Notes under the pieces: model-generated | The model's database searches: none | Told to the model about the DNA's origin: nothing | The model's input: only the letters and a program-made list of their open reading frames with translations | Shown here: piece by piece, positions 42,026-55,503 of the stretch | How the letters are laid out: each line of letters opens with the position of its first letter | How positions within the stretch are numbered: the stretch's first letter is position 1 | NCBI GenBank assembly: GCA_963665775.2 | Contig: CAXXTF010000002.1 | Location: 1,429,300-1,493,299 of the forward strand | Length of the DNA stretch: 64,000 bases | Direction: 5' to 3' | Source of the DNA: Dehalococcoidia bacterium | Lineage (GTDB): Bacteria; Chloroflexota; Dehalococcoidia; SM23-28-2; RBG-16-64-32 | Position numbers and translations under genes: made by a program

Positions 42026-42724
42026 CTAGGCGGGGGAACGCAGTCTGCTTATCAAGGTTTGGAACTCGCAGCGGGCGCAGAACTCGTAGGCCTCCACGAG
42101 GACGAAGAGGATCACGCCGCCCCAGAGATAGGCCGCCAGCACGTCGCTCGGCCAATGCGCGCCAGTGTATACCCGCTGGAGGCCCATCAGAGCGATCACC
42201 GCTAGGCTGGACCATCGCACCCATCGCCGTATCCGAGGACTGGCGATGAGCCACTCAGAGGCGAAGTAGACGAATCCCCACAGCAGAACCGCGCCCAACA
42301 CATGGCCGCTGGGAAAGGAGAACCCACCCGCCTGCTCCGTGACCTCCACCTGGAATGGCGAGGGCCGTGGCCTCTCCACCAGCTCCTTCAGCAGGAATGC
42401 CGAACCGCGGGCGATCACGGCTAGGACCATAAACAACGCCATCAGCCGTTGCCTTCGCAACGTCATGAGGGCCACTATCGCTAGTGCGATGAGCTGGAAC
42501 ACGGGTGAGAGCCCGATACGATAGACGAATTCGCTAAGCAGGTCCAGGCCGGGGAGGCGCACGTCCTGGACTGCTCGTGCCAGGGTTACGTCCCCCGGAG
42601 GGTAGGCGCCGAAGAAAGCGAGCGCCGTCAGGGCGATGGCAGCGATAAATGCCGCAAGCCACAGTCCCCACTGTCTGGGGCCAGGGGCTAGCATGGTCTG
42701 CTTCCACTTAGCAGTCATAGTCAT
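42026..42724 (-). CDS. PAP2-family membrane phosphatase
   Basis: K-x4-RPRP, SFPSGH, RVYTGAHWPSD; catalytic motifs intact. Confidence 0.92.
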   Translation of the reverse strand: MTMTAKWKQTMLAPGPRQWGLWLAAFIAAIALTALAFFGAYPPGDVTLARAVQDVRLPGLDLLSEFVYRIGLSPVFQLIALAIVALMTLRRQRLMALFMVLAVIARGSAFLLKELVERPRPSPFQVEVTEQAGGFSFPSGHVLGAVLLWGFVYFASEWLIASPRIRRWVRWSSLAVIALMGLQRVYTGAHWPSDVLAAYLWGGVILFVLVEAYEFCARCEFQTLISRLRSPA

Positions 42725-42774: not shown

Positions 42775-44094
42775 CTAGGGCTCGCTTGGCAGACCTCCGA
42801 CCACGGTCGGCTCGGAAACGGCTGGAAGCTCCTTCCACACTTCCCGAAGCTTCACCAGGTAGGCTGTCAGCAGGAACGCCGCTCCGATAACGTCGGTGGC
42901 GACATCAACCCCCTCCGGCGCTATCCCTTCGGACGCGAAGAAATCGGCCAGCCGCGAGATGATCAAGAATCCGATGCCTATCGCCAGGAGCGGGAATGTG
43001 GCTCGCGATCGCATGAGTTCGCCAAGGAAGATGGCGACCGCTGTGAGGCCCACAACCCCGTACCCGAGGAGAATCAGGTCATCCAGGCCGACCAGGGGCA
43101 CAGCGACGCCGAGGCCGTTCTCGACCGCGTCTCCCACCCGCCCGCGTATGCCGAAGTAGTCGTCGCCTCCTAGCCAAACGAGCCCGGCGCCGGAGAGGAT
43201 CCAGAAGAAGCTGCCCGGCGCATCCACCCGCTGTCCCGCCTGCGGCAGCCGCCAGAAGCGGGTGTAGATGTAGTACCCTGCCACTCCGGCCAGCAGCAAC
43301 TCGGCAGCCCTCAGGGCCTGCATCGGTCCATACGCTCCGAAGGTCTCCGATAGCTTACCCGCAAGGACACCCGCGATGGCGGCGACGACCAGAGCCACCG
43401 CGATCGCCGCCAGGATGCTCAGGACCAGAGTCCGGTGCGAGCGCAGCCTCACCGCCGAGTCCCTCACCCAAGCGAGGAGATGGTGCGGCCGCAGGGAGTG
43501 CCAACGACTCTTGACCATCCTGGGCGCTACGCCGGGACCGGAGCAGGCCAGCCAGCAGGTCAGCACCGCCAGGTGCTGGCGCCGGTACAGCCTAAACGGC
43601 AGCCTTCGAAACCCCTGATCGAGCAGAACAGCCAGCAAGGGGCGGTTCCTACGTAGGGGCTCGGCCAGGAGGTAGGCGAAGCTACCTAAGAACGGTACCA
43701 GCGACGCCGCGGCGACCGTCAGCGTGTGGATCTTTCGCGCCCCGCGGAGCCGCTCGTCGGATCCCCGCCTGATCAGCGCCCTCGCCTCTGCCGTCAGCCG
43801 GAAGAACACCGTCCATCCAAACCGAGCGACATTCTCTAAGGGGGTGAACAGGACTAATGTAATAGCGATATGCGCCCCAAGGTGCCCCAACGCAGCCATG
43901 GTCTCAGGTGTCTCCAGGCCACTTGTGGCTTTCTCCGCTTCCTCCCGGTCCAGGCTGCCCTCGTCTACCAGTCGCTGGACTGCCCTGCGAGCCCAGTCGC
44001 GGGTCAGTCCACCTCCGGCTCGCGCCTGACGAAAGGTGCCTCGTATCGCCCCGATCAGAGCCGGGGGCCATAGCAGGCGCAGCGGCCTAGGCAC
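42775..44094 (-). CDS. Uncharacterised membrane protein; N-half homologous to the C-terminus of 47717-49699
   Basis: HLGAH..ARFGWT..IHT..LVP..LLDQ..LPFRLY versus HLGVH..ARFLWT..IHT..LVP..VLDQ..LPFKIY; extra multi-TM C-half. Confidence 0.7.
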   Translation of the reverse strand: MPRPLRLLWPPALIGAIRGTFRQARAGGGLTRDWARRAVQRLVDEGSLDREEAEKATSGLETPETMAALGHLGAHIAITLVLFTPLENVARFGWTVFFRLTAEARALIRRGSDERLRGARKIHTLTVAAASLVPFLGSFAYLLAEPLRRNRPLLAVLLDQGFRRLPFRLYRRQHLAVLTCWLACSGPGVAPRMVKSRWHSLRPHHLLAWVRDSAVRLRSHRTLVLSILAAIAVALVVAAIAGVLAGKLSETFGAYGPMQALRAAELLLAGVAGYYIYTRFWRLPQAGQRVDAPGSFFWILSGAGLVWLGGDDYFGIRGRVGDAVENGLGVAVPLVGLDDLILLGYGVVGLTAVAIFLGELMRSRATFPLLAIGIGFLIISRLADFFASEGIAPEGVDVATDVIGAAFLLTAYLVKLREVWKELPAVSEPTVVGGLPSEP

Positions 44095-44884
44095 GACGCA
44101 GGGGCTTGAGCAAGACGGAGCCGACCTTCAGGACAAGCTGTAGCAGCCTGCCCCAGATCCGCAGCTCAGACTTCTGCCACTCCTCGGCGCAATGCTGATA
44201 CTCGTCTGTAGCATGCTGAAGTTCTCGAAGCCCCTCCGGTCCCAGGGCCGCTTCGATCTCGTCACCGTGCTTCTCGATATACTTGCGAGTCTTAGCGACG
44301 AACACGTCGTCGAACACCGGAATCAACCCCGCCTTGATGGCGTCGATCCATTGACCGATCGGCATCATCGGGTTGACCACGCCTGATTCCAGATCGATGA
44401 TCTTGTAGCTTCCGTCCGGCGTCTCGATCAGGTTCCCGGTCGCCTTGGGGTTCCAGGGAAGGACCTGCCAGGTAGGCAGCCCTACCTCCTGAAAGAGAGG
44501 TGTGAGCTTCCGCAGGAACGCCCGCGCCCGCTTCTTGTCCTTTGGCACCTCCCCTTCGATGAGTTGGGTCACGAAAATGCAACCCTTCTCATCGCAGCGT
44601 ATATCGAGAGTCGGAGCCACGTGGTCGGTGCCGAACCAGAACTTCGTCATCAGGCTGGCGATGGTCCGGCGCGCTTTGGCCGCTTGTAGAGAGGGCTCGT
44701 TCCGAACGTAGGGGAAAGGGGCCTGGAACGCCAGCCAGTAAAGGAGCTTAACCAGGAGAGGAGGCCGGTAAATCTTGGTTGCGGTGGCGTGTTCCCGGTC
44801 TAGAAGGACGCGGCTGGCCAGGCCGCCGGATACATCGGAGTGGGCTTCGTGGTCATCTGGATCCCTCGCTTGATCTGGGAACAT
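44087..44884 (-). CDS. Atypical protein-kinase-like domain protein
   Basis: GGLASRV..TATKIY, FVTQLIEG, GNLI..KIIDLES; homologous to the middle of 47717-49699; GGGAGG RBS before ATG 44884. Confidence 0.65.
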   Translation of the reverse strand: MFPDQARDPDDHEAHSDVSGGLASRVLLDREHATATKIYRPPLLVKLLYWLAFQAPFPYVRNEPSLQAAKARRTIASLMTKFWFGTDHVAPTLDIRCDEKGCIFVTQLIEGEVPKDKKRARAFLRKLTPLFQEVGLPTWQVLPWNPKATGNLIETPDGSYKIIDLESGVVNPMMPIGQWIDAIKAGLIPVFDDVFVAKTRKYIEKHGDEIEAALGPEGLRELQHATDEYQHCAEEWQKSELRIWGRLLQLVLKVGSVLLKPLRRA

Positions 44885-45198
44885 GGAGTCCTCCCGTCGG
44901 CGTCTCGGTTTCGACATTATACACCCGCGTACTCGGCGCGACGGCACCCGATTCTGGAAGCTCCATCGGCTGCATCGCGAAGGCTGGTCGGGTCAGTAAC
45001 TTGACGCCCCCTTCCGGCAGATGGATAATCCTCTTCGCCATCACCAGCCCAGATGGCGCCCAGCGCAATGGAGCAATCCCGCGATCCCTCTTTCGCCGTG
45101 GTTGTGCCATCCATACCGGTCGGTTGTGCATCATTTCGTGGCTGAACGCAGGAGCCGCTCAGGAACTTATCACATTAGTTAGGTGTGAGGCATAGGCT

Positions 45199-45486
45199 AT
45201 GGCCGAGCCGATCATTCTTACGGTCGATGACGAGCCGCAAGTCAGGAACGTGGTCGCCCGTAGCGACCACGGGCGCGAGCTGGAAACTTGGTTGGAGGAG
45301 CGCGGGATGGTAGACGCCTGGAAACTCGCGCCTGCGCTGGTGAATCTGAATTACGATACCGCCGGGCTGACAGCGCTGGCCGACAGCATCGCTCCCGACC
45401 AACTCCCCGCCGTGATTGGCGGGCTGGACACGACTTACGCGGTATACAGCGTACTCACAGAGATCGGTCAGAGCGCGGGACCCTGA
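45199..45486 (+). pseudogene. Deletion chimera: receiver-domain N-terminus joined to an internal histidine-kinase segment
   Basis: MAEPIILTVDDEPQVRNVVAR then SDHGRELETWLEERG..AWKLAPALV..EIGQSAG. Confidence 0.6.
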
Positions 45487-45569
45487 CGATCGAGTAGGCA
45501 CCTGTGATGGTGGGTGACGCAGGGCCCATGGACGTCGCTGATTGAAGGAGACAATAGGCGAGGAATGCG

Positions 45570-47456
45570 ATGATGGAAGAGGGAAAGGGTGACAAGCCTC
45601 GCCGCCGGCTCCCGTGGTGGCTGATCGTTGGCTTTGTAGCCCTCGTTCTGCTGGTATTCGTTCCCTTGATCGGCGGCGGGGACGATAAGAAGACCGAGGA
45701 GGTGTCTTTGCTGGCTTTCGCCAAGGCGGTGGAGGAAGCTGGGGAGACCGACCGCATCGTCGTGAAGGGCGATAAGCTCACTCTGGAGCGGGAAGATGGC
45801 ACCAAAGTAGTTAAGACCCGGAAGGAAGAAGGTATCAGCGCCATCGAGACGCTCCAGCGCTTGGGGGTCTCCGATGAGGCCCTGCAAAGAGTCGAGATTG
45901 AGGTCGAGAAGAAAGGCGCGAGCATAGGCTCCATCCTGCTCACTCTTGCTCCTCTCCTCTTCCTCGTCGTCATCGGGTTCGTAATCTTCCGGCAGTTCCG
46001 CGGCGGCGCCGGCGGCGGGATATTCGGCTTCGGCCGCAGCAAGCCCCGGGTCACTGGGGTCGACGGTCAGCGTCCGAAAACTACATTCGCCGACATCGCT
46101 GGCGTAGAGACGGCCAAGCTTGAGCTGCACGAGGTCGTTGAGTTCCTCGGCTCTCCTGAGAGGTTCACCCGCCTGGGCGCCCACGTTCCTAAGGGCGTGC
46201 TGCTGGTGGGTCCGCCGGGCACGGGCAAGACGCTGCTGGCCAGGGCGATTGCCGGCGAGGCCGGCGTGCCCTTTTTCAGCATCTCCGCCTCCGAGTTCGT
46301 GGAGATGTTCGTGGGAACGGGGGCCTCCCGGGTGCGGGACCTATTCGAGAAGGCGAAAGCGGCGGCGCCCTCCATAATCTTCATCGACGAGATCGACGCC
46401 GTGGGTCGGCGGCGGGGCGTCGGCCTGGGCGGCGGCAACGACGAGCGGGAGCAGACGCTGAACCAGATCCTGGTGGAGATGGACGGGTTTGAGACCGGCA
46501 CAAACGTGATCGTCATCGCCGCCACCAACCGCGCCGACGTGCTGGACGCCGCCCTCCTGCAGCCCGGACGGTTCGACCGCCGGATAGAGGTGGACCGCCC
46601 TGACGCTGAGGGCCGGGAGGCGATCCTACGGGTGCACGCGCAGGGTAAGCCGCTGGCCCCAGAGGTCAAGCTGGCGGACATCGCCAAGCTCACGTCAGGC
46701 TTCACGGGCGCCGACCTGGAGAACCTGATGAACGAGGCGGCGATCCTCGCCGCCCGCAAAGGCGAGCTCGCGATCGGTTCCACCGCGCTGAACGAGGCGT
46801 TCGAGCGGATCATCGCCGGGCCGGAGCGGAGCAAGAAGCTCCTCAGCCCGGAGGAGCGCCGCGTGGTCGCGTACCACGAGGCGGGCCATGCCGTGGCCAT
46901 GGAGTCCATGCCCAACGCCGATCCCGTGCACAAGATCAGCATCGTCTCCCGCGGGCCGGCTTTGGGCTACACGATGCCGCTGCCGGAGCGGGACAGGGTG
47001 CTGCGCTCAAAGGAAGCGATGGAAGACGAGATCGCCGGCCTTATGGGGGGGCGGGCCGCCGAGGAGCTACTGCATTGCAGCGTGACCACGGGTGCCGCCA
47101 ACGACCTGCAACCGGCCACGGCGCTGGCCCAGGCCATGGTCACGCAGTACGGGATGAGCCCTGAGATGGGCCTGCGCATCTTCGGCAACGGCGAGCAGTC
47201 ACCCCCCGGCTGGCCACAGCAGCAGCGCGAGTACGCCGAAGGCACGGCCCTCAGGATCGATACCGAGATCAACGGCATCCTGGACCGCGCCCATACCAGA
47301 ACGAGGACGATTCTAAAGGAACGCTGGGGTACAGTCTCTCGGATGGCCGCCGCCCTGCTGGAGCAGGAGACGCTGGAACGGCGGGACATCGAGAGACTTC
47401 TCGCCGAGAGCGTCGAGGGTACCGAAGTCTACTGCGAAGAGGAGACCGAGGCTTAG
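45570..47456 (+). CDS. ftsH: ATP-dependent zinc metalloprotease FtsH
   Basis: Two TM segments, [48 protein letters not shown]. Confidence 0.96.
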
Positions 47457-47716
47457 ACGGCAGGGGCTTGGCTGTAGTCCGTCGCACCCCTTTTCGTGAG
47501 CCTTGATGTGAATGTGGTCTGCGGTCTCCCCCACTGTGGCACCGTCGTCCCCTCGGCGGACGATCACCGGCACTGTCCAGCCAAAAGCTAAGTCCGTGCG
47601 CGCACCGGACACCGGATCATAGCATCTATGCGCTCGCGTCTACACAATGTTGACTATTGTCTGGGAGCGAGTGATACTTTCGGCCATAGGAAGAGGCAGT
47701 AATTCCAGGCCAGAGA

Positions 47717-49699
47717 ATGTCTACGCCAACACGCACCGACCTGAAGGGCATGGTGACCCTATCGGGCCTTTTTAAGGGGCCGTGGGGGATTATCTGGTTG
47801 ACTGCGGCGGGCGTGCTGACGGCCCTATTGATTCTCCTTAGCATAGCCGTCAACGAGGGCCGAACTGCTTCCCAGGACCAGGATGTCCTGGAATGGGTGG
47901 TCGGCTGGGACGCCCCTGGCCTGGCCGGTCTCGCAGACGTTATCAACTTTCTCGCTAGTACCTGGTCAGGGACCGCGATAGTGGCAGCGGGAATAGCAGT
48001 CATCTGGCTTCTTACGGTGGGTCGGGTTGCCTTCGGGCTTGCCATCGTCGGCATGGTTCTGGTCGTGGTCGCCTTCTGGGGCGATCGAATCCTGGCGGAG
48101 ATCGTAGGGCGATCTGGGCCTCTCGCGGAGGGATCGCAGAGCTTCCCTAGTGGGCGCCTATTTGGCAGCACGGTGTTCTTTGGATTCTTGGGATTCCTCG
48201 CTGTTTACTACCGGCTAAACAGGGTACTTCTTATCCCTCTGTTAGGCATTCTTCTCGCCTTGATCGTGGCTGCTGGCTTTGCTCGCATCTTTAAGGAAGC
48301 CGCATGGCCAAGCGATGTAGCAGCCGGATACCTACTCGGAGGCGTCTGGCTCCTACTGCTTATCCCACTGTTTATCTCCTTTCAGAGGTTTTCCTGGCTG
48401 TCCTCCCCGAAGCAAGCGCCAGACCTGACTACATTGGGATGTGAAACTTGTCGTATTGAAAGGTCTATCGCAAGCACGGTAGTGCTGGACCCCGAGCGAG
48501 GTACGGCGACCAAGGTATATCGGCCACCGGGATTGGTGCGCCTGCTTTACTGGGCAGCCTTCCAGGCCAAGTTTCCCTATGAGAACAACCGAGCCTCTCT
48601 GGATGCGGCGACGTACCGCAGGAAGATCGCGAGTGCCCTAACCACCCACAGATTCGGGAAGGACCTCGTCGCCCACGTGACCGCCGTAGAGTGCGAATTC
48701 GAGGCATGCAGCTTCGTCACCGAGTTTGTTGCAGGCGAAAAGGTCGAGAACGATGAGGAGACACAGCAATTCCTCGGTCAGGTCGCGGAGACGTTCGCCG
48801 AGGCAGGCCTGTCCGTTTGGCAAGTGAACCCACGGAATCCTCACGCCCACACAAACCTCATCCGGACGCCCGAAGGGGACAGCAAGATTATAGATCTGGA
48901 GTCTGCCGTAGTCACACCGATTCCCGCACCCGGGCAATGGCGGTCCTCGCTCAGGCGGGGAAGCCTCCCGATATTCGATGACATCGACTTCCAGCGATTG
49001 CGAGGCTACATCTCCTCCAATGAGACAGCACTACAAGAGAGCCTTGGGCCGGAAAGCTTGGCCGGGTTCAAGGCCAACGTGGATCGTGGCGAGCAGGCGA
49101 TTCACGCCTGGCAAGATTCTGAGCCCCGAATCTGGGGGCGGCTTATCAGCGGGGCGTACCGGTTACTGGACTGGCCGGGCTTCGCCAAGCGCTTGAAGCA
49201 TACGTTGGGTGGCGCCGACCGGGCCGCTGAGGCCTTCTTGAATCGTGGCATCGAGCGTTGGGAGATCGAAGGCCGGCTGCCGCCCTCGGAGGCGGCATGG
49301 CTGCGGTCCCAACTTTCGTCGGGCGAGGTCCAAAACGCGACGCACCACCTGGGAGTCCACCTGGTCTTAAGTGTAGCGATAGCTATTCCTATTCCAGGAC
49401 TTAGAAGCCTCGCTCGCTTCTTGTGGACGTTCACTTTCTGGCTCAAGTCCCAGGCTAGGCGCCTTCTGCGTCGCGCCCCGAAGCCGGCTCAAGGGGCCTC
49501 CAACATCCACACCCCCCTGGTCATGCTGATCGCCCTGGTGCCTGCTGTCGGAGGCGTTTCTTATCTTGCCTCTCGCCCGCTCCGTAAGAAGCTTCTAATT
49601 CGCTTGGTGCTGGACCAGATCGCCATTAAGCTGCCCTTCAAGATCTACACTCGCCTGAACCTGGGTCGGAGGCTGGCCCCTGCACGTACCGACCGCTAG
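47717..49699 (+). CDS. Fusion of a degenerate PAP2 domain, a kinase-like domain and a C-terminal membrane-associated domain
   Basis: SFPSGR and RIFKEAAWPSD (both His lost); TATKVY, FVTEFVAG, TNLI..KIIDLES. Confidence 0.75.
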   Translation: MSTPTRTDLKGMVTLSGLFKGPWGIIWLTAAGVLTALLILLSIAVNEGRTASQDQDVLEWVVGWDAPGLAGLADVINFLASTWSGTAIVAAGIAVIWLLTVGRVAFGLAIVGMVLVVVAFWGDRILAEIVGRSGPLAEGSQSFPSGRLFGSTVFFGFLGFLAVYYRLNRVLLIPLLGILLALIVAAGFARIFKEAAWPSDVAAGYLLGGVWLLLLIPLFISFQRFSWLSSPKQAPDLTTLGCETCRIERSIASTVVLDPERGTATKVYRPPGLVRLLYWAAFQAKFPYENNRASLDAATYRRKIASALTTHRFGKDLVAHVTAVECEFEACSFVTEFVAGEKVENDEETQQFLGQVAETFAEAGLSVWQVNPRNPHAHTNLIRTPEGDSKIIDLESAVVTPIPAPGQWRSSLRRGSLPIFDDIDFQRLRGYISSNETALQESLGPESLAGFKANVDRGEQAIHAWQDSEPRIWGRLISGAYRLLDWPGFAKRLKHTLGGADRAAEAFLNRGIERWEIEGRLPPSEAAWLRSQLSSGEVQNATHHLGVHLVLSVAIAIPIPGLRSLARFLWTFTFWLKSQARRLLRRAPKPAQGASNIHTPLVMLIALVPAVGGVSYLASRPLRKKLLIRLVLDQIAIKLPFKIYTRLNLGRRLAPARTDR

Positions 49700-49773
49700 C
49701 ATCTGTTAGCCATGACATTCTCAATAGCGCCTAGTCCCCAACGAAAACTGAATCTAGCTTAGAGGAACGAGCG

Positions 49774-51264
49774 ATGCAGAAGGACTGGATGTTAGAACTG
49801 GCCCGTAAGTATGAAGAGACTCGTCGTCGATATCCGAAGGACAAATTGATGGCCGTCTTCGACATCGACGGTACGATTCTAGATACCCGTTATATGATCC
49901 TCCACGTACTGCAGGACTTCGATAAGGAACATGGGACCCACCTCTTCCAGAAGCTCAATGTCTCGGATATCAGGACACACGAAAACCAAGTGGACCTTCT
50001 TCTGGCCGAGCTACAAATTCCGAATCAGAAGCAAGAAGAGATTCTAGACTGGTACAACCTTCAACGTTGGACACCGGAGCAAATCCTTCACGCTCATAAT
50101 CCGTTTTCTGGAGTACTTGAGGTTATTCGATGGTTTCAAATTCAGCCCGAGACGTTTATCGGCTTGAACACTGGACGACCGGAATCACTGCGAAGAGATA
50201 CGTTGAGATCCCTGAATGCGCTGGGGAAGGAGTATAAGGTCCGGTTCTCAGACGCGCTCCTCCAGATGAATCCTCGTGGCTGGGAACAGGAGGTGGATAA
50301 CGCAAAAGTTGCCGGGATACGCTACTTTCAGGCGGCTGGCTATCGAGTCTTCGCCTTTATAGATAACGAACCTGATAATTTACAGGCAGTCTCAAGAATC
50401 GATCCGGCGCAAGAGATCCTTCTTCTACATGCCGACACGATATTTGAATCCAAGAGAACCAGCCTTCCCGCTCATATGGTCAAAGGAAAGACCTATGATC
50501 TGACGGAACTTATCCCTGAGAAAGCCCTACCCAAGCACATTGAATTTGTTTGGCATGGCGTAAACGACGAGGTCAACCTACGTCAGTTTCTGGCCTCGGA
50601 CATCAGTTGGGGCGAATTTGATGTTCGGCTCGACCCTATAGGGAGCGAACTGATTCTGCGTCATGACTCCTTTGTAGACAGTCCACTTGACGCAGACGAG
50701 GATTGGCTGACCTTGGATCGACTCTTAGAGCGATTTCAACAGGCAGGCAAGTCCGCGAAGTTTGACTTGAAAGCCGGGGGTAAGGTGCTGGACAAAGTCT
50801 TGGAATTAGGGGCAAGGTATGACTTTTCCGAGACGCACTTGTGGTTCAACGGCAACGTCGAAAAACTGCAGGAAGAGGGTTTCAGAAGATTGGCCGACGC
50901 GCATCCGAAGGCCGTACTGCAATGCCCGGTGGATTTCTTAGCCCCTCTGATATGTCGCACTCCGAAGAAAGCTGGGGTGATCCTCAAATCGTTCACGGCA
51001 TGGGGCGTAAACCGCTTCTCTATTTCCTGGGAGAGCCCGGACATGCGCACCTTTCTTGACCAAATGGAAGATTGGGGGTTCGAGGTTAACATCTACAAGG
51101 TTCCTGACTTGAATTCATTTCTGGAAGCTGTACTGCTAATGCCTCGCTCGATCACCGCTGATTTCAATTTCCCCCAATGGCATTACTACGGAAGAGGCTC
51201 CGGGCAGGATAGTGAAAAGTACGAGTACTCCGTGCGGAAGAGGCGAACGAGAAGGCAGGCCTGA
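49774..51264 (+). CDS. HAD-family hydrolase fused to a GDPD/PLC-like domain
   Basis: VFDIDGT, NTGR, K, FIDNE (HAD motifs I-IV); WHGVN..EFDVR..LRHD..KFDLK. Confidence 0.7.
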   Translation: MQKDWMLELARKYEETRRRYPKDKLMAVFDIDGTILDTRYMILHVLQDFDKEHGTHLFQKLNVSDIRTHENQVDLLLAELQIPNQKQEEILDWYNLQRWTPEQILHAHNPFSGVLEVIRWFQIQPETFIGLNTGRPESLRRDTLRSLNALGKEYKVRFSDALLQMNPRGWEQEVDNAKVAGIRYFQAAGYRVFAFIDNEPDNLQAVSRIDPAQEILLLHADTIFESKRTSLPAHMVKGKTYDLTELIPEKALPKHIEFVWHGVNDEVNLRQFLASDISWGEFDVRLDPIGSELILRHDSFVDSPLDADEDWLTLDRLLERFQQAGKSAKFDLKAGGKVLDKVLELGARYDFSETHLWFNGNVEKLQEEGFRRLADAHPKAVLQCPVDFLAPLICRTPKKAGVILKSFTAWGVNRFSISWESPDMRTFLDQMEDWGFEVNIYKVPDLNSFLEAVLLMPRSITADFNFPQWHYYGRGSGQDSEKYEYSVRKRRTRRQA

Positions 51265-51353
51265 CCAGTAACCTCCAACCGCGTATCGCGATCCCGGCAT
51301 AGCGCCGCCAATGGTTGTGACCACCGAAGCTGGCAAGGGTAGCCGGCACGAGG

Positions 51354-52103
51354 ATGAAAATGTCGGCAGGCATTTCAAAATCGAATCGTACGCTTGGTCT
51401 CCTGCGGGATGCCTTCCGCCTCGCTGTAGCCCCCAGCCGGCGCAATCTGCTGCACTGGCTTTCCTGGACGGTTACGCTGGCGACACTGCTGAGCCTCACC
51501 GTTATTCTCTACGGCGGCCAGATCTACGGCTGGGAGCAGGACGTCACCCGGGAGTTTCAGGCCTGGGACTACCCGGAGTGGGCGTTCCGGATAACCTCCT
51601 CCAACCTGATCGATCCCATGGCCTGGCAAGGGGGATCGATCAGGGCCTCCGCCTTCCTCGCACTCCTTCTTCTGGGGCATCGGGTGGAGGCCGCCCTGGT
51701 GGTCCTGATCTTCCCGCTGCACATCCTGGGAAACTTCCCCAAGGCGATCGTCGACAGGGAGCGGCCTTCGGAGATGTTCGACGGCATCTTCGGTGTGGGC
51801 GGCGATATGAGCTTCCCGAGCGGTCACACAGAGTCTGCCGTCACATTCTTCGGATTCCTCACCTTCGTGGCCCTAACTCACCTCAGCGGCCGTGTCCGGC
51901 GCACTGGCATCGTGCTTCTCTGGCTTGGCTTCGCGATCCTGGTGGGTTACGGGCGCATCGCTCACGGCCACCACTGGCCGGTGGACGTCCTCGCCTCTTA
52001 CGTCGTTGGCACCGGGCTACTCTCGGGTTTGATCTGGCTCCATACGAGCCTCTCTGGAGCGCGGGAGCTAAGAGCAACCTCAGACGCAGGTGCCCGCCAT
52101 TGA
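51354..52103 (+). CDS. PAP2-family membrane phosphatase
   Basis: KAIVDRERP, SFPSGH, RIAHGHHWPVD. Confidence 0.9.
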   Translation: MKMSAGISKSNRTLGLLRDAFRLAVAPSRRNLLHWLSWTVTLATLLSLTVILYGGQIYGWEQDVTREFQAWDYPEWAFRITSSNLIDPMAWQGGSIRASAFLALLLLGHRVEAALVVLIFPLHILGNFPKAIVDRERPSEMFDGIFGVGGDMSFPSGHTESAVTFFGFLTFVALTHLSGRVRRTGIVLLWLGFAILVGYGRIAHGHHWPVDVLASYVVGTGLLSGLIWLHTSLSGARELRATSDAGARH

Positions 52104-52162
52104 CGTAGGCGCGGGCAAACTCCTAGAATGCGCGCAAACGCCTACCGAAGAAGGAGTATTTA

Positions 52163-52354
52163 TTGGCCGAGGTGCAGATTCGATCCAACGAGAGCTTTGA
52201 GCAAGCCCTGAAGCGCTTCAACAAGCTAGTGCAGGAGACGGGTGTCCTGGCCGAAGCCCGTCGCCGCCAGCATTTCGAACCCCCCAGCGCATACCGGAAG
52301 AGGAAGGCAGCGGCCAAGCGCCGCAAGAGCCGGAAGAACGCCGAGCGCGGATAA
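52163..52354 (+). CDS. rpsU: 30S ribosomal protein S21
   Basis: ESFEQALKRF..RRRQHFEPPS..RKRKAAA; TTG start after AAGGAG. Confidence 0.95.
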   Translation: MAEVQIRSNESFEQALKRFNKLVQETGVLAEARRRQHFEPPSAYRKRKAAAKRRKSRKNAERG

Positions 52355-52490
52355 GCTTGGGTCCACCTGAACGGCCGATACGGCCCACAAGCCCACCACT
52401 ACCGGTTACGCGATGCCCATCCAGAAGGACTTGGCGACCCAACGGTCGCCGAACGGCCGGTCGGCCCTTAGGAACGCCGGCGACGGTTAG

Positions 52491-52958
52491 CTAGAGCGTC
52501 CACTCGCCGGTACGGACAAACAGCTTGAGCTTCTCGCCAATGGCTTTCGGGACGAGTTCCACCCGCAAGCCATTGGCGCCACCCGGATCGAGGTAAGCGA
52601 CGCTGCCACTGGGGCCGATATCCTCTCTTGGCACACCCAACGCCTCCGCGCGCTTCAGCAGTTCGGGGAGATCCTCATCCACGAAATAGGCCACGTGGAA
52701 CACACCTTCGCCGTGCTCTCGCAGATGCTTGGTCGCACTGGACTCGACATCGAGCCTCGGCTGGATGAACTCCAGCCACGGGAATTCTGTCACCGAGAAC
52801 GCGATCTTCATGCCGGCGCCAGAGACGTCCCGAAGCCGCCAATCGGTGATGCCGAAAGCCTTACCGTATCGCTCGATGGCAGCCTCGATATCATAGACGG
52901 CGATCCCGATGTGGAAGGGCGCACCCAGTCCTAGGCTCTTGACAACGTCCTCGCTCAT
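52491..52958 (-). CDS. VOC family protein (methylmalonyl-CoA epimerase-like)
   Basis: HIGIAV, LEFIQP, GEGVFHVAY, VELV. Confidence 0.85.
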   Translation of the reverse strand: MSEDVVKSLGLGAPFHIGIAVYDIEAAIERYGKAFGITDWRLRDVSGAGMKIAFSVTEFPWLEFIQPRLDVESSATKHLREHGEGVFHVAYFVDEDLPELLKRAEALGVPREDIGPSGSVAYLDPGGANGLRVELVPKAIGEKLKLFVRTGEWTL

Positions 52959-53238
52959 GAGTCCCTCCCTTCTATTCTCTCCCACGCGATATCACCCGAG
53001 AGTTCCCATTTCGAGGTGGCCCCAGTGTAGGATCAGGAGCACATGACGGCTAAGATTGCTGTTAACGACGAGAGGTGTCATCAACCAAGCTGCCTCCTTC
53101 CCATTCGCGCCCTTTGTTGCAGGCACGGAAGGGCAATTTCTCTAGTGAACCTCTCCGTGGAGTGGAAGCGGTCTCCCCCGCCGATGGTGTGAGTTCTGAC
53201 GAGGACCCTCCTGGTCACGTCCGGGTCAGCACCCACAT

Positions 53239-53751
53239 TCATCGCCGGTACGATATGTCCTGTCGTGAGCGGTGACCGAGGGTCGCTCCGCCAGGCCCAG
53301 ACTCAACGACTGCGTCCACCCGGTTCCACTCGCCCACCAATACGCGATCGGCGATCTTCCAGGCCGAATCGCGCCGCTCAAACCGGTCGACGTAGCGGCC
53401 GGAACCGATCTGATCGTACTCCTTGCCGTCTCGCTCCAGCCGCGAGTAGGCCACGAAATAGGCTTCGCTATAGGCCACGTCGCCCGCTAGCTCCAAGGAA
53501 TTTGTCCCGATGAAGTGCATCGTGCTTTTCCACGTCTGGAGCAGTATCGGCACGATCATTTTGGCAAACTCCGGGCCACTTCCCCTGAAGAACTCTCCGT
53601 AGTCGACGGTCGAATCCGCGTGGAACACGGACCTGACCAGCTCCTCATCACAACGGTCAATGCCCCTACAATAACGCATGACCGCCTCGTGAATCTCTTG
53701 CTTATCCAGTAGGGCCTGAAGCGCCGCATCTCGCTGGTATTCGGTAGCCAT
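53239..53751 (-). CDS. SnoaL/NTF2-like protein
   Basis: RYCRGIDR, TMH, GRYVDRFERRD..WKIADR. Confidence 0.88.
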   Translation of the reverse strand: MATEYQRDAALQALLDKQEIHEAVMRYCRGIDRCDEELVRSVFHADSTVDYGEFFRGSGPEFAKMIVPILLQTWKSTMHFIGTNSLELAGDVAYSEAYFVAYSRLERDGKEYDQIGSGRYVDRFERRDSAWKIADRVLVGEWNRVDAVVESGPGGATLGHRSRQDISYRR

Positions 53752-54094
53752 GCCACTCTCCTTTGAATCGATCGAGCCTCGTAGGTCTTTGGCGCGACTA
53801 AGCTGCTGGCCGCCATTTTAGGTGAGCTGCCCCTGTGCCGTCCAGGTGAATGATCCAATGTTGTCACCCTGCATCGAACTTCAACATTATATCCTCATCG
53901 GGTGGATGTGACGGCCAGATGTTCCGCGTCCCTTCGTTGAGCAAGTCTTAACCCAAGGGTGATAGAAGTGATAACGGCCACCGCGAGGACAATTCCGAGG
54001 AGGGGCCAGGCTCTAGCCGCACATGCTTGCAACCGACAGCCCGTGCCCGCGTTCTATATAACATGATAGGCGCCTTAACTACCCGGAGGGTTAC

Positions 54095-54622
54095 TTGATG
54101 GAAGCTACACGCCAGTCATCTCTGATCGGCCGGATGATCCGGGCTGCCATGTTGGACGAGCAGCTCTACGAAGAGGTCGAGCATGACCAGTCAGCCACCC
54201 GCCAGGCGATGCTCGTTGTGGTGCTCGGTGCGGTTGCCGCCGGCATAGGCGCGCTGTACGGCGGCCTGCTTGCTCTCGTGGTAAGCATAGTAGCCGCCCT
54301 GATCGGCTGGGCCGTCTATGCATTCGTCGCCTACTGGGTGGGCACTCACATCTTCCGTGGGCCGCACACCTCAGCCACTTGGGGAGAGCTCCTGAGGACA
54401 CTGGGCTTCGCGAACTCTCCGAAGGTGTTGCTGGTCCTTCTGATCATACCGGTAGTCGGCCTGTTCATAGCTCTGGCCGTGTTCATCTGGACGCTGATCA
54501 CCACGGTCATCGCCATTCGCAGCGCCCTGGACTTCACCACCGGGCGGGCCATAGCCACTGCCGTAGTCAGCTGGATAGCCTTGCTCCTTGTGTTTGTCTT
54601 GACGGCCATCGTCGCGGGGTAG
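54095..54622 (+). CDS. YIP1-like membrane protein
   Basis: YEEVEHDQSAT, LLRTLGFANSP, multi-TM; start probably ATG 54098. Confidence 0.8.
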   Translation: MMEATRQSSLIGRMIRAAMLDEQLYEEVEHDQSATRQAMLVVVLGAVAAGIGALYGGLLALVVSIVAALIGWAVYAFVAYWVGTHIFRGPHTSATWGELLRTLGFANSPKVLLVLLIIPVVGLFIALAVFIWTLITTVIAIRSALDFTTGRAIATAVVSWIALLLVFVLTAIVAG

Positions 54623-54684
54623 CCGACTATGGACTATACGCCTGGAAAAATCGCCTAATCAGCGACAGGGGATGACTCGATCGG

Positions 54685-55503
54685 CTAGACATTCTGCTGC
54701 GCCTGCTTCACGGCATCGAGGAGGGCCGCGTGTATCAGCCCATTCAAGGCAACGACGTCGCCCTGGAAGAGCCAGGTGTCTCCGCCGCTGTAGTCGGTGA
54801 CTTGGCCGCCCGCTTCTGCCACCAGCAACGCTCCTGCGGCGAGGTCCCACGGCCTCTGCCCAGATTCCCAATACCCGTCCAGGCGACCGCAAGCAACATA
54901 GGCAAGTTCGAGCGCCCCCGATCCGAACCTCCTCACGCCGTGGGAATTCCTCGTCATCCTCGAGAACTCCTTGATGTTGTCGGGACTCGCTTCGCTGATC
55001 GAATCTGCAAGGCCCGTCGACATGACAGAGTCGGCGAGAGTGGCCGTATGGGACACGTGACATTCGTGACCGTTTACATAGGCCCCTGTGGCAGCAACAG
55101 CCGTGAACGTCTCTCCCAACGCAGGTGCGTGTATTACACCTAGCACAGGCCACCCCCTTTCGATGCGGGCGATCGAGATGCCGAAAAATGGAAGCCCGTG
55201 CACAAAGTTTATGGTTCCATCCACAGGATCCGCCGCCCATAGCGTGTGTTCCTGATCACCTGATGGCAGCTCCTCGGCATAGTCTTCAACCACGACAGCG
55301 TCTCCGGGGAATGACTCGCTTAGTTGGTGAAATATCAACTTAGCGCTCACAGCATCTGCCGCCGCTATTAGATCCTGGCTTCCACGAACTCGTATGTCTA
55401 GGTCGCCTGAGTTCCGGTACCGTAGTAGCGCTTCGCCCGCTTCCTCAGCAATGCGCCTAGCTTCGTGCAAAGCCCAGTGCGATGGTGAGTCGAGACTCGT
55501 CAT
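54685..55503 (-). CDS. Inositol monophosphatase family (SuhB-like)
   Basis: DPVDGTINFVHG, RRFGSGAL, WDLAAGALL. Confidence 0.92.
   Translation of the reverse strand: MTSLDSPSHWALHEARRIAEEAGEALLRYRNSGDLDIRVRGSQDLIAAADAVSAKLIFHQLSESFPGDAVVVEDYAEELPSGDQEHTLWAADPVDGTINFVHGLPFFGISIARIERGWPVLGVIHAPALGETFTAVAATGAYVNGHECHVSHTATLADSVMSTGLADSISEASPDNIKEFSRMTRNSHGVRRFGSGALELAYVACGRLDGYWESGQRPWDLAAGALLVAEAGGQVTDYSGGDTWLFQGDVVALNGLIHAALLDAVKQAQQNV

Follow-up and report, generated by a model that had tools for sequence, protein, structure and literature searches.

In phosphatases of the PAP2 superfamily the histidine of the third sequence motif (C3) is the nucleophile, the PgpB variant H207A is inactive in vivo and in vitro, and the active sites face the periplasm (PMC7413402). 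We analyzed a stretch of 64,000 nt from a Dehalococcoidia bacterium (contig CAXXTF010000002.1 of assembly GCA_963665775.2, forward-strand positions 1,429,300 to 1,493,299), hereafter the window, in which an open reading frame (ORF) of 660 amino acids (aa) encodes a PAP2 domain without this histidine, fused to a kinase-like middle domain and a C-terminal membrane module. Like YodM/PgpB (structure 5jki) and E. coli PgpB, the protein matches the PAP2 profile and has Pro-Ser-Gly in the second motif (C2) and Arg and Asp in C3. In contrast to YodM/PgpB it lacks Lys and Arg of the first motif (C1) as well as the histidines of C2 and C3, and it carries two more modules. PAP2 folds that have no catalytic residues and are retained nevertheless are found in the eukaryotic LPPR/PRG proteins. 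These are eukaryotic and have no kinase-like fusion, and they are likened to the window protein at the level of the PAP2 superfamily only.

For the middle domain the closest described systems include ABC1/UbiB proteins (COQ8, UbiB, MSMEG_1954, Rv3197). Lipids activate the ATPase of UbiB proteins, whose task is to extract or chaperone prenyl lipids (10.1101/149823), and COQ8 chaperones lipid intermediates (10.64898/2026.02.03.703536). ABC1 structures gave the best matches in VIA-align (7cyr/7cz2, Z 8.8/8.7, root mean square deviation 4.2/3.8 over 147/148 residues). The SIASxV loop of the window family resembles the Ala-rich ABC1 loop, both families occur in a lipid context, and the 660-aa protein has membrane helices C-terminal to the kinase fold, as has E. 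coli UbiB (10.1101/149823). Unlike ABC1, the window family does not conserve the catalytic Asp, and four residues are inserted in its catalytic loop. The ABC1 family PF03109 did not match the whole protein at E ≤ 1, the domain at E ≤ 10 or any of 82 family representatives. The ABC1 motif KxGQ is present in 21 of 25 ABC1 ORFs and absent from the 660-aa protein and its 286-aa paralogue in the window. The kinase core begins only about 20 residues after the last PAP2 helix, and there is no N-terminal KxGQ domain.

RIO and Bud32/PRPK kinases are of similar size and were matched by VIA-align (Z 7.5–8.4) and Foldseek (Rio2, E 1.5e-4), but the middle domain has neither HGD nor a RIO1 Pfam match. Its metal loop IID-x-x-S/A-V presumably resembles the RIO loop. 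SelO has a kinase fold that keeps the β3 Lys and the αC Glu and has no Asp of the His-Arg-Asp (HRD) motif; it has been argued to be active (PMC3281104). Neither a sequence nor a fold match to SelO turned up among our hits, none of the searches being aimed at it.

Our comparisons, made on sequences and a predicted structure, indicate that the window protein joins a real pseudo-phosphatase to an atypical kinase-like domain. For the family of kinase folds to which the middle domain belongs, current Pfam and NCBIfam libraries have no model. This family is highly conserved without His-Arg-Asp, and fusions and operon structure tie it to lipid-phosphate phosphatases. With the same scaffold carrying a live or a dead PAP2 domain, and with a fused and a three-gene form in one genome, the family constitutes a natural experiment. 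Comparing these forms could show what role an HRD-less kinase fold has at the membrane of bacteria, and whether a PAP2 fold can be used to bind lipids instead of catalyzing a reaction.

Loss of the PAP2 catalytic residues

A Pfam scan of the 660-aa protein returned PAP2 (PF01569) as its sole match (residues 140–217, 30.6 bits against a cut-off of 27.2), and the NCBIfam scan gave nothing useful. The PAP2 family profile aligned to the YodM/PgpB structure 5jki with E 2e-12 over profile positions 29–212 (~184 positions). Judged from hydropathy segments and the alignment to YodM, the region may form a six-helix membrane core with the motifs at the outer face. An earlier note on this DNA had described a frame that stays open although all three PAP2 motifs are altered, and it was right on both counts. 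The ORF 47717..49699 (+) is uninterrupted. C1 reads VGRSGP instead of K-x6-R-P; Ala127 occupies the place of the Lys and Gly134 that of the Arg, and Pro135 is kept. C2 reads SFPSGR, with PSGR in place of P-S-G-H. C3 reads ARIFKEAAWPSD, so that S-R-x5-H-x3-D has Ala for His196, while R190 and D200 are present. As the note had also stated, both neighboring stand-alone PAP2 genes, 42026..42724 (-) and 51354..52103 (+), keep K-x6-RP, PSGH and R-x5-H-x3-D.

In a homologue search over 5.8 billion proteins 8000 candidates were scored, of which 284 reached E ≤ 0.001. The top 120 hits are 53–75% identical to the window protein, mostly 640–690 aa long and all tagged as PAP2 by Pfam; those that bear a name are called 'phosphatase PAP2 family protein' or 'undecaprenyl-diphosphatase' and stem from metagenome-assembled genomes of Chloroflexi/Dehalococcoidia. 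We counted motif residues in an alignment of these 120 homologues and the window protein, with denominators of 118 or 121. The C2 His was present in 113/118 members, the C3 His in 117/121 and the C1 Arg in 108/118, and the C3 Arg and C3 Asp were invariant (121/121 each). R132, two residues before the Arg of the RP pair, is also conserved across the family. The position of the C1 Lys is occupied by Gly in 110/118 members. The missing Lys, part of the K..RP loss listed in the earlier note, is therefore a trait of the family and not special to the window copy.

Both histidines were absent from only four of the 121 sequences, namely the window protein, P0003, which is a 99% identical variant of it, and the 75% identical P0004 and P0005. 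When members of at least 600 aa were placed on a tree with FastTree, these four (P0001, P0003, P0004 and P0005) formed one clade with support 1.0 and a stem of 0.149, nested among His-bearing members. The retention of both histidines in close homologues, which the note had named as the mark of simple decay, was thus seen at up to 68% identity, while the closest homologues, at 75%, have neither. A cluster look-up added P0271, P0274, P0275, P0277 and P0278, which have Gly in C1, Arg or Gln in C2 and Ala or Glu in C3, and untouched kinase-like motifs. The dead clade hence comprises at least 9 distinct full-length or near-full-length sequences without stop codons, in two lineages that are 75% identical. 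Since the substituting residues differ between these two lineages, the positions appear to have drifted since a single ancestral loss. From the tree and the alignments we conclude that the C1 Arg, the C2 His and the C3 His were lost in one ancestor of the window's lineage. Loss of both histidines is confined to this small clade of the alignment, and the fusion family, judged by its sequences, normally pairs a His-bearing PAP2 domain with the kinase-like domain, the pseudo-phosphatase being a lineage-specific minority state.

Because the C3 His is the nucleophile and H207A inactivates PgpB, the window clade cannot act as a classical PAP2 phosphatase, and the dead PAP2 domain claimed by the note is borne out to this extent. 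As statements of activity the annotations 'phosphatase PAP2 family protein' and 'undecaprenyl-diphosphatase' are therefore wrong for this clade.

In the wider family 18 of 21 diverse representatives with a long N-terminal extension align to the PAP2 profile. Among them the C3 His is also absent from P0185 (Ile), P0169 (Met) and P0180 (Ser), and P0179 lacks the C2 His only; all four keep the kinase-like invariants. P0185, P0169 and P0180 sit among His-bearing members on the tree of the kinase-like domain, where local supports near them are only 0.5–0.9. Fitch parsimony on 18 tips, with P0179 and three proteins without a PAP2 match excluded, requires at least four His losses. On these sequences two losses of the PAP2 histidines appear safe as a minimum for the wider family. 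A full-text literature search, subscription journals not covered, returned no paper on a PAP2/kinase-like fusion or on a dead bacterial PAP2; the pseudoenzymes that it brought up were those of protein phosphatases only.

Two pairs of family members differ mainly in their PAP2 domains: P0072/P0097 diverge by 0.004/0.000 in the kinase-like/C-terminal modules and by 0.33 in PAP2, and P0075/P0109 by 0.029/0.018 and 0.38, respectively. This suggests swapping of the PAP2 module by recombination, or else chimeric metagenome assemblies.

The middle domain as an HRD-less kinase fold

A HMMER search with the middle domain over 1.84 billion representatives of 50% identity clusters gave 269 hits at E ≤ 0.001. 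None of the 82 family representatives that were scanned with Pfam matched a kinase family, and the Pfam search of the domain itself returned only a chance match to Pox_G7 at E ≤ 10. A sequence profile search of the PDB at the same threshold retrieved PAP2 proteins only. For profile-profile comparison, an alignment of 70 near-complete domains was run in hhalign against sets of Dehalococcoidia ORFs fetched by Pfam family. The comparison to Pkinase reached a probability of 91.6% (P 8.1e-7, score 56.3, 197 aligned columns) and that to ABC1 62.3% (P 7.4e-5, score 43.5, 179 columns). APH followed with P 0.012 (score 25.3, 111 columns), and a 9-sequence RIO set gave 1.3% (P 0.04, score 21.7, 178 columns). 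In 60 column shuffles the scores were 14.9 ± 2.3 for Pkinase (maximum 23.2), 15.6 ± 2.9 for ABC1 (maximum 25.8) and 15.2 ± 3.3 for RIO (maximum 32.0). As the RIO score lies below its shuffle maximum, the relationship to RIO is not significant by hhalign; RIO structures were matched by VIA-align with Z 7.5–8.2. Two half-alignments against Pkinase gave 88.6% and 92.7%. Unrelated controls had P values of 0.056–0.81, and pairs of known kinase families 4e-17 to 8e-6.

Structure comparison led to the same assignment. The AlphaFold2 model of residues 241–495 has a mean predicted local distance difference test (pLDDT) of 84 and a predicted template modeling score (pTM) of 0.82, and is weakest at model residues 160–180, which follow the DFG-like Asp. 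Foldseek found 28 PDB chains at E ≤ 0.001, and all among the matches listed are kinase folds: the kinase domains of lanthipeptide synthetases (3e-5), Rio2, TkArkI, MELK, ROCK1, p38 and PknB. VIA-align over 48,161 chains found ULK4 (Z 8.3), Bud32 (7.9), YihE (7.8), Rio1 (7.7) and Rv3197 (7.7), and of the 50 entries listed 46 are kinase folds by title and four are NIS synthetases. In a second VIA look MSMEG_1954 (8.8 and 8.7), DAPK1 (8.6), PRPK (8.4) and RIOK (8.2) ranked at the top; MSMEG_1954 and Rv3197 are ABC1-family proteins. Based on these profiles and models, the middle domain is a protein-kinase-like fold. The non-canonical kinase-like domain that the earlier note had recognized is thereby supported by the hhalign value, the model and the kinase-fold matches, together with the absence of HxD.

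The motif order read in that note (TATKVY, FVTEF, TNLI, IIDLE) was likewise recovered, each motif being paired by profile alignment with the β3 Lys, the hinge, the catalytic-loop Asn and the DFG Asp, respectively. In both the Pkinase and the ABC1 alignment β3 Lys, Asn and Asp stand at canonical positions (K266, N380, D393). K266, G364, W368 and N380 are each found in 70/70 members, P375, D393, E395 and S396 in 69/70 each and Q369 in 66/70, and D421 is 100% conserved. The Pkinase alignment places W368-Q369-V370 onto H-R-D and opens an insertion of 6 residues ahead of N380. When ABC1 is aligned instead, its catalytic Asp falls onto position 371, which is Asp in 28/70, Asn in 10/70 and Ala in 10/70 members; the window protein has Asn there and the paralogue Leu. 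The domain thus has no conserved HRD catalytic Asp, and no conserved Glu was found at the αC position in the Pkinase alignment. The loop before β3 reads SIASTV in the window protein and contains no Gly; the family form SIASxV aligns with the Ala-rich loop of ABC1. The note had found WQVxPxNP in place of HxD in two window proteins, and this is correct (WQVNPRNP in the 660-aa and WQVLPWNP in the 286-aa protein). Judging from the alignment, the W-Q catalytic loop is a family-wide feature and not a peculiarity of the two paralogues. Because of the W-Q loop, the variable position 371 and the missing KxGQ, we regard the domain as a separate, HRD-less branch of the kinase-like superfamily that belongs to neither ABC1, RIO nor Pkinase.

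Constraint after the loss and proposed function

We compared how the modules changed once the histidines were gone. Between the dead lineages the PAP2 core is 0.64–0.65 identical and the middle domain 0.82–0.84, a ratio of 0.77–0.78, and for 336 His-bearing pairs of like divergence this ratio is 0.80 ± 0.08. Within the 90% cluster of P0004 there are 22–24 differences in PAP2 and 7–8 in the middle domain, about 3.1-fold per site, compared with a pooled divergence ratio of 2.85 in 163 close His-bearing pairs. Where 90% or more of the His-bearing members agree in a residue, the dead clade is unchanged at 97/101 positions in the middle domain, 44/47 in the C-terminal module and 31/43 in PAP2, the latter including P135, S145, G146, R190 and D200. 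With branch lengths re-estimated for each partition on a fixed tree, the PAP2/middle ratio in other branches has a median of 1.42 (5–95% range 0.20–4.11), and the later branches of the dead clade lie at 2.05–4.69. We read this pattern as a burst of change when catalysis was lost, probably followed by moderately relaxed but real constraint on the PAP2 fold. By the same counts the middle and C-terminal modules appear to be under strong constraint.

The reading we prefer, with a probability of about 60%, is that the protein is an intact member of a three-module family whose PAP2 domain lost catalysis and was kept as a folded, non-catalytic membrane domain, and whose kinase-like domain has an ATP-driven role on lipids. 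By analogy to the topology of PgpB/YodM (PMC7413402) and by hydropathy, the PAP2 pocket would be exposed at the membrane's outer face, and the kinase-like domain would be cytoplasmic. This domain would bind ATP through K266, N380 and D393 and might work, like ABC1/UbiB, as an ATPase or nucleotide-driven switch on a membrane lipid and not as a phosphotransferase. The dead PAP2 domain would act as anchor and would probably bind a lipid phosphate head group, most likely that of a polyprenyl phosphate/diphosphate carrier lipid or of a phosphatidylglycerol phosphate-type lipid. Hydrolysis, where needed, could come from the two intact stand-alone PAP2 genes nearby. The role of the dead PAP2 domain as a sensor, as the earlier note proposed, is an idea within this frame.

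Several observations weigh against this reading. Regarding the fold, the Foldseek template modeling scores (TM-scores) are only 0.26–0.36 and VIA Z values of 7–9 are middling by the tool's own note; what counts is that three independent lines agree. With neither the αC Glu nor a Gly-rich loop conserved, even the binding of a nucleotide is uncertain. Regarding the gene, expression rests on a single contig of 192 nt from one RNA library. In the dead clade 12/43 conserved PAP2 positions are altered, the PAP2/middle branch ratio of its stem is 5.25 and exceeds the 95th percentile of 154 other branches (4.11), and the ratio for the whole clade is 3.0 compared with 1.78 for the tree. Single-nucleotide polymorphisms (SNPs) among near-identical strains, taken for three genes from whole-stretch contigs of three DNA runs in comparison to the window, are nonsynonymous in five of five cases in the fusion gene (T29A, T82N, R132Q, E459K and P655L), a pattern that does not point to strong constraint in recent time. 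Of 61 genomes searched, only that of the window yielded a full-length match, and none of its 60 relatives did. This genome also carries a complete split version of the system, described below, and two intact PAP2 genes, so the fusion gene may be redundant.

That the kinase-like domain is instead a true transferase, acting on a polyprenol or other lipid, on a protein or by SelO-like transfer through E395, D421 or the Asp371 of some members, is in our view unlikely. Its appeal lies in the very strong conservation of W368, Q369, P375, E395, S396, D421 and E469, in the retained Lys, Asn and Asp of the nucleotide/metal site, and in the 28/70 members whose Asp371 aligns with the catalytic Asp of ABC1. 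HRD-less kinase folds that were proposed to be active provide a precedent (PMC3281104). However, position 371 varies across the family and is not Asp in either window protein, the alignments contain no equivalent of the αC Glu, and the gene context indicates no substrate, no neighbor being common to more than 7 of 42 loci.

Decay, the alternative considered in the earlier note, would mean that the fusion gene is redundant and heading for loss, with the dead PAP2 domain as the first damage and the frame still open for lack of time. The five nonsynonymous SNPs, the altered PAP2 positions with the raised branch ratio, the missing full-length orthologues in 60 related genomes, and the paralogous system with two intact PAP2 genes in the same window all speak for it. 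However, the dead state is older than the split into lineages that are 75% identical and is found without stop codons in at least 9 sequences, the conserved positions of the middle and C-terminal modules are nearly all kept, the PAP2 rate relative to the middle domain returns to the His-bearing range after the stem branch, and a contig identical to the gene is present in the RNA library. Because the His-less state is common to these sequences in two lineages and the other modules are almost untouched, simple decay of the window copy does not fit, and we consider this explanation quite unlikely. A slow slide towards loss in the window species is possible. The two genes downstream of the fusion gene each have four nonsynonymous SNPs and one synonymous SNP; over 47400–52200 there are altogether 13 nonsynonymous and 2 synonymous strain differences in the three genes, with G>A predominant. 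Selection may be relaxed in this organism, or its population may be small.

That PAP2 is still catalytic by another chemistry, with substitutes such as Arg147 or as a transferase, is very improbable: the phosphate-site residues R132, P135, S145, G146, R190 and D200 are retained, but one lineage has Ala and the other Glu for the C3 His, and the C2 His is Arg or Gln, so the replaced positions are not themselves conserved, and PgpB H207A is inactive (PMC7413402).

The split system, lipid-handling partners and neighboring genes

The window genome (2.35 Mb, 2 contigs, 91% complete) contains four PAP2 matches, three of which lie in the window. Also in the window, a minus-strand operon encodes a kinase-like protein, then a membrane protein and then an intact PAP2 (Table 1). 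The 286-aa kinase-like paralogue is 46% identical to the 660-aa protein over 228 aa (E 2e-67). Residues 36–175 of the 439-aa membrane protein match the C-terminal module of the fusion protein with 38% identity (E 2e-21), and the gene's GTG start overlaps the stop of the upstream paralogue by 8 nt. The 911-aa protein P0153 combines the same parts in the same order: a kinase-like domain at 13–253, a region at 269–649 that shares 37% identity with the 439-aa protein (E 5e-59), and, at 676–887, a PAP2 domain with all motifs. As the operon and P0153 have the same three parts, the modules belong together. By sequence, two versions of this three-module system lie in the window: the split one has a live PAP2, the fused one a dead PAP2.

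Table 1. Coordinates of the fusion gene, its parts and neighboring genes in the window
Feature	Position	Strand	Basis or remark
Whole ORF, 660 aa: dead PAP2, kinase-like domain, C-terminal membrane module	47717..49699	+	Homologues full-length at 53–75% identity
Promoter-like site TTGACT, 17 nt, GATACT; 39 nt 5' of start codon	47650..47678	+	Consensus match only
PAP2 domain, residues about 20–230; closest solved relative B. subtilis YodM/PgpB	47774..48406	+	PF01569, 5jki profile, hydrophobic segments
C1 remnant, residues 127–135: A at Lys position, R132, G134 for Arg, P135 kept	48095..48121	+	
C2 motif SFPSGR: His147 to Arg, codon CGC	48140..48157	+	
C3 motif R190..A196..D200: nucleophile His to Ala, codon GCA; Arg and Asp kept	48284..48316	+	
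Protein-kinase-like domain, residues 245–485; no Pfam or NCBIfam model	48449..49171	+	hhalign, AlphaFold2 model, Foldseek, VIA
K266, β3 lysine equivalent (TATKVY)	48512..48514	+	70/70 diverse members; aligns to VAVK
Catalytic-loop equivalent W368-Q369-V-N-P-R-N-P-H-A-H-T-N380; W-Q for H-R-D, 4–6-residue insertion, Asn kept	48818..48856	+	
D393-L-E395-S396, DFG-equivalent metal-binding loop	48893..48904	+	D, E and S each 69/70
C-terminal module, residues 505–650: helical linker and two hydrophobic helices, conserved His/Pro/Arg	49229..49666	+	
Paralogous kinase-like protein, 286 aa; first gene of three-gene operon	44087..44947	-	
Membrane protein, 439 aa; N-terminal part homologous to C-terminal module of 660-aa protein	42775..44094	-	
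Stand-alone PAP2, 232 aa, three motifs intact; last operon gene	42026..42724	-	
HAD-like phosphatase N-terminus and C-terminal half without family assignment, 496 aa; 75 nt 3' of fusion gene	49774..51264	+	Pfam HAD_2
Second stand-alone PAP2, 249 aa, motifs intact; two genes downstream of fusion gene	51354..52103	+	

Four genomes from a sister genus have conserved the split system, with kinase-like proteins that are 90–93% identical. The ratio of nonsynonymous to synonymous substitution rates (dN/dS) in comparison to these orthologues is 0.12–0.17 for the kinase-like protein, 0.26–0.33 for the membrane protein and 0.22 for PAP2, with 0.19 for an FtsH fragment as comparison. The dS of the kinase-like paralogue against loci L004–L007 is 0.27–0.30, about half that of the adjacent genes (0.47–0.76). 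In the genome collection the nearest relatives of the fused gene occur in other families. Since among the 61 genomes the fused gene is present only in the window genome, it looks like a later addition, and we infer from this distribution that it was probably added to a genome that already held the split system.

Regarding the distribution, the kinase-like domain was detected in 23 of 301 genomes sampled from the class (E ≤ 1e-10) and was absent from the hits in a sample of 400 other genomes of the phylum (E ≤ 1e-8). The family is found mainly in some Dehalococcoidia and is uncharacterized. Among the 82 scanned representatives 20 carry PAP2 (2 of them below the cut-off) and one MMPL. When the neighbors of the fused gene were clustered by ORF over 41 related loci and the window, none was common to more than seven of the 42 loci, and the next two clusters were antisense shadow ORFs. 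In six closely related loci (L044, L046–L049 and L053; e.g. L047:2169-6738) an Agl23-family gene (TIGR03663, 258 bits) is followed by a flippase-like gene (PF03706, E 2e-50; TIGR00374) and a gene with the kinase-like domain only. The product of the latter is 60% identical to the window domain and has no C-terminal membrane module. Agl23 translocates dolichol-linked glycans (PMC11182771). As PAP2, flippase-like, Agl23 and MMPL proteins all handle membrane lipids, the function can be placed at the handling of carrier lipids or lipid phosphates.

A wider proposal, which we put forward tentatively and hold to be doubtful, is that the Trp-Gln domain is a new kinase-like branch that serves as the ATP-driven cytoplasmic partner of PAP2, of MprF-type flippase-like and Agl23-type proteins and of MMPL modules. 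PAP2 fusions would then be selected for binding lipid phosphates at the outer face, and the window protein would be a pseudo-enzyme pair that reports or gates the status of the carrier lipid across the membrane. Selection for binding and not for hydrolysis would explain why the phosphatase was lost at least twice with the fold kept.

A RIO1-family gene lies directly 5' of the kinase-like-only gene on the same strand in L064 (G059:C14) and L059 (G103:C145). Because G059 and G103 belong to one GTDB family, this adjacency counts as one observation. The Kdo-kinase family PF06293 was found in one of 101 genomes of the class and was not used.

Directly downstream of the fusion gene, the HAD-like protein has DIDGT in its N-terminus. 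In related genomes, orthologues with 81% identity are neighbors of the split system, of which the gene may therefore be a part. None of the 41 related loci yielded it. The C-terminal half of about 240 aa has no family or PDB sequence match, and the PDB search with the protein gave chance matches only. A stand-alone PAP2 gene adjoins the fused gene in a few other loci (L120:695-1126, L015, L028 with three in a row, and L031). A metagenome scan gave four loci, and the 76% identical relative L118 covers only residues 303–655.

In one run of an RNA library a contig of 192 nt is identical to 48638–48829 and a second contig lies at 52163–52200; the remaining stretch is without RNA cover in this single run, which proves nothing. 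Near the fusion gene six promoter-like consensus sites were found in the region, compared with 2.8 expected. The site at 47650..47678 and the RNA contig together are weak evidence of expression. G+C content is 0.55–0.58 over 48001–52000 and 0.60–0.65 in the flanking 2-kb bins.

The earlier note ascribed many pseudogenes to the window; of the five ORFs scanned at 45199–55503 four are intact family matches and one is without a match. This ORF of 95 aa (45199–45486, +) lies in the gap of 623 nt between the kinase-like paralogue and ftsH and had no Pfam match at E ≤ 0.01. Its start, we assume, resembles a response-regulator receiver domain, and the ORF may be a gene remnant. In genome G032 the gap between the kinase-like gene and ftsH measures 368 nt.

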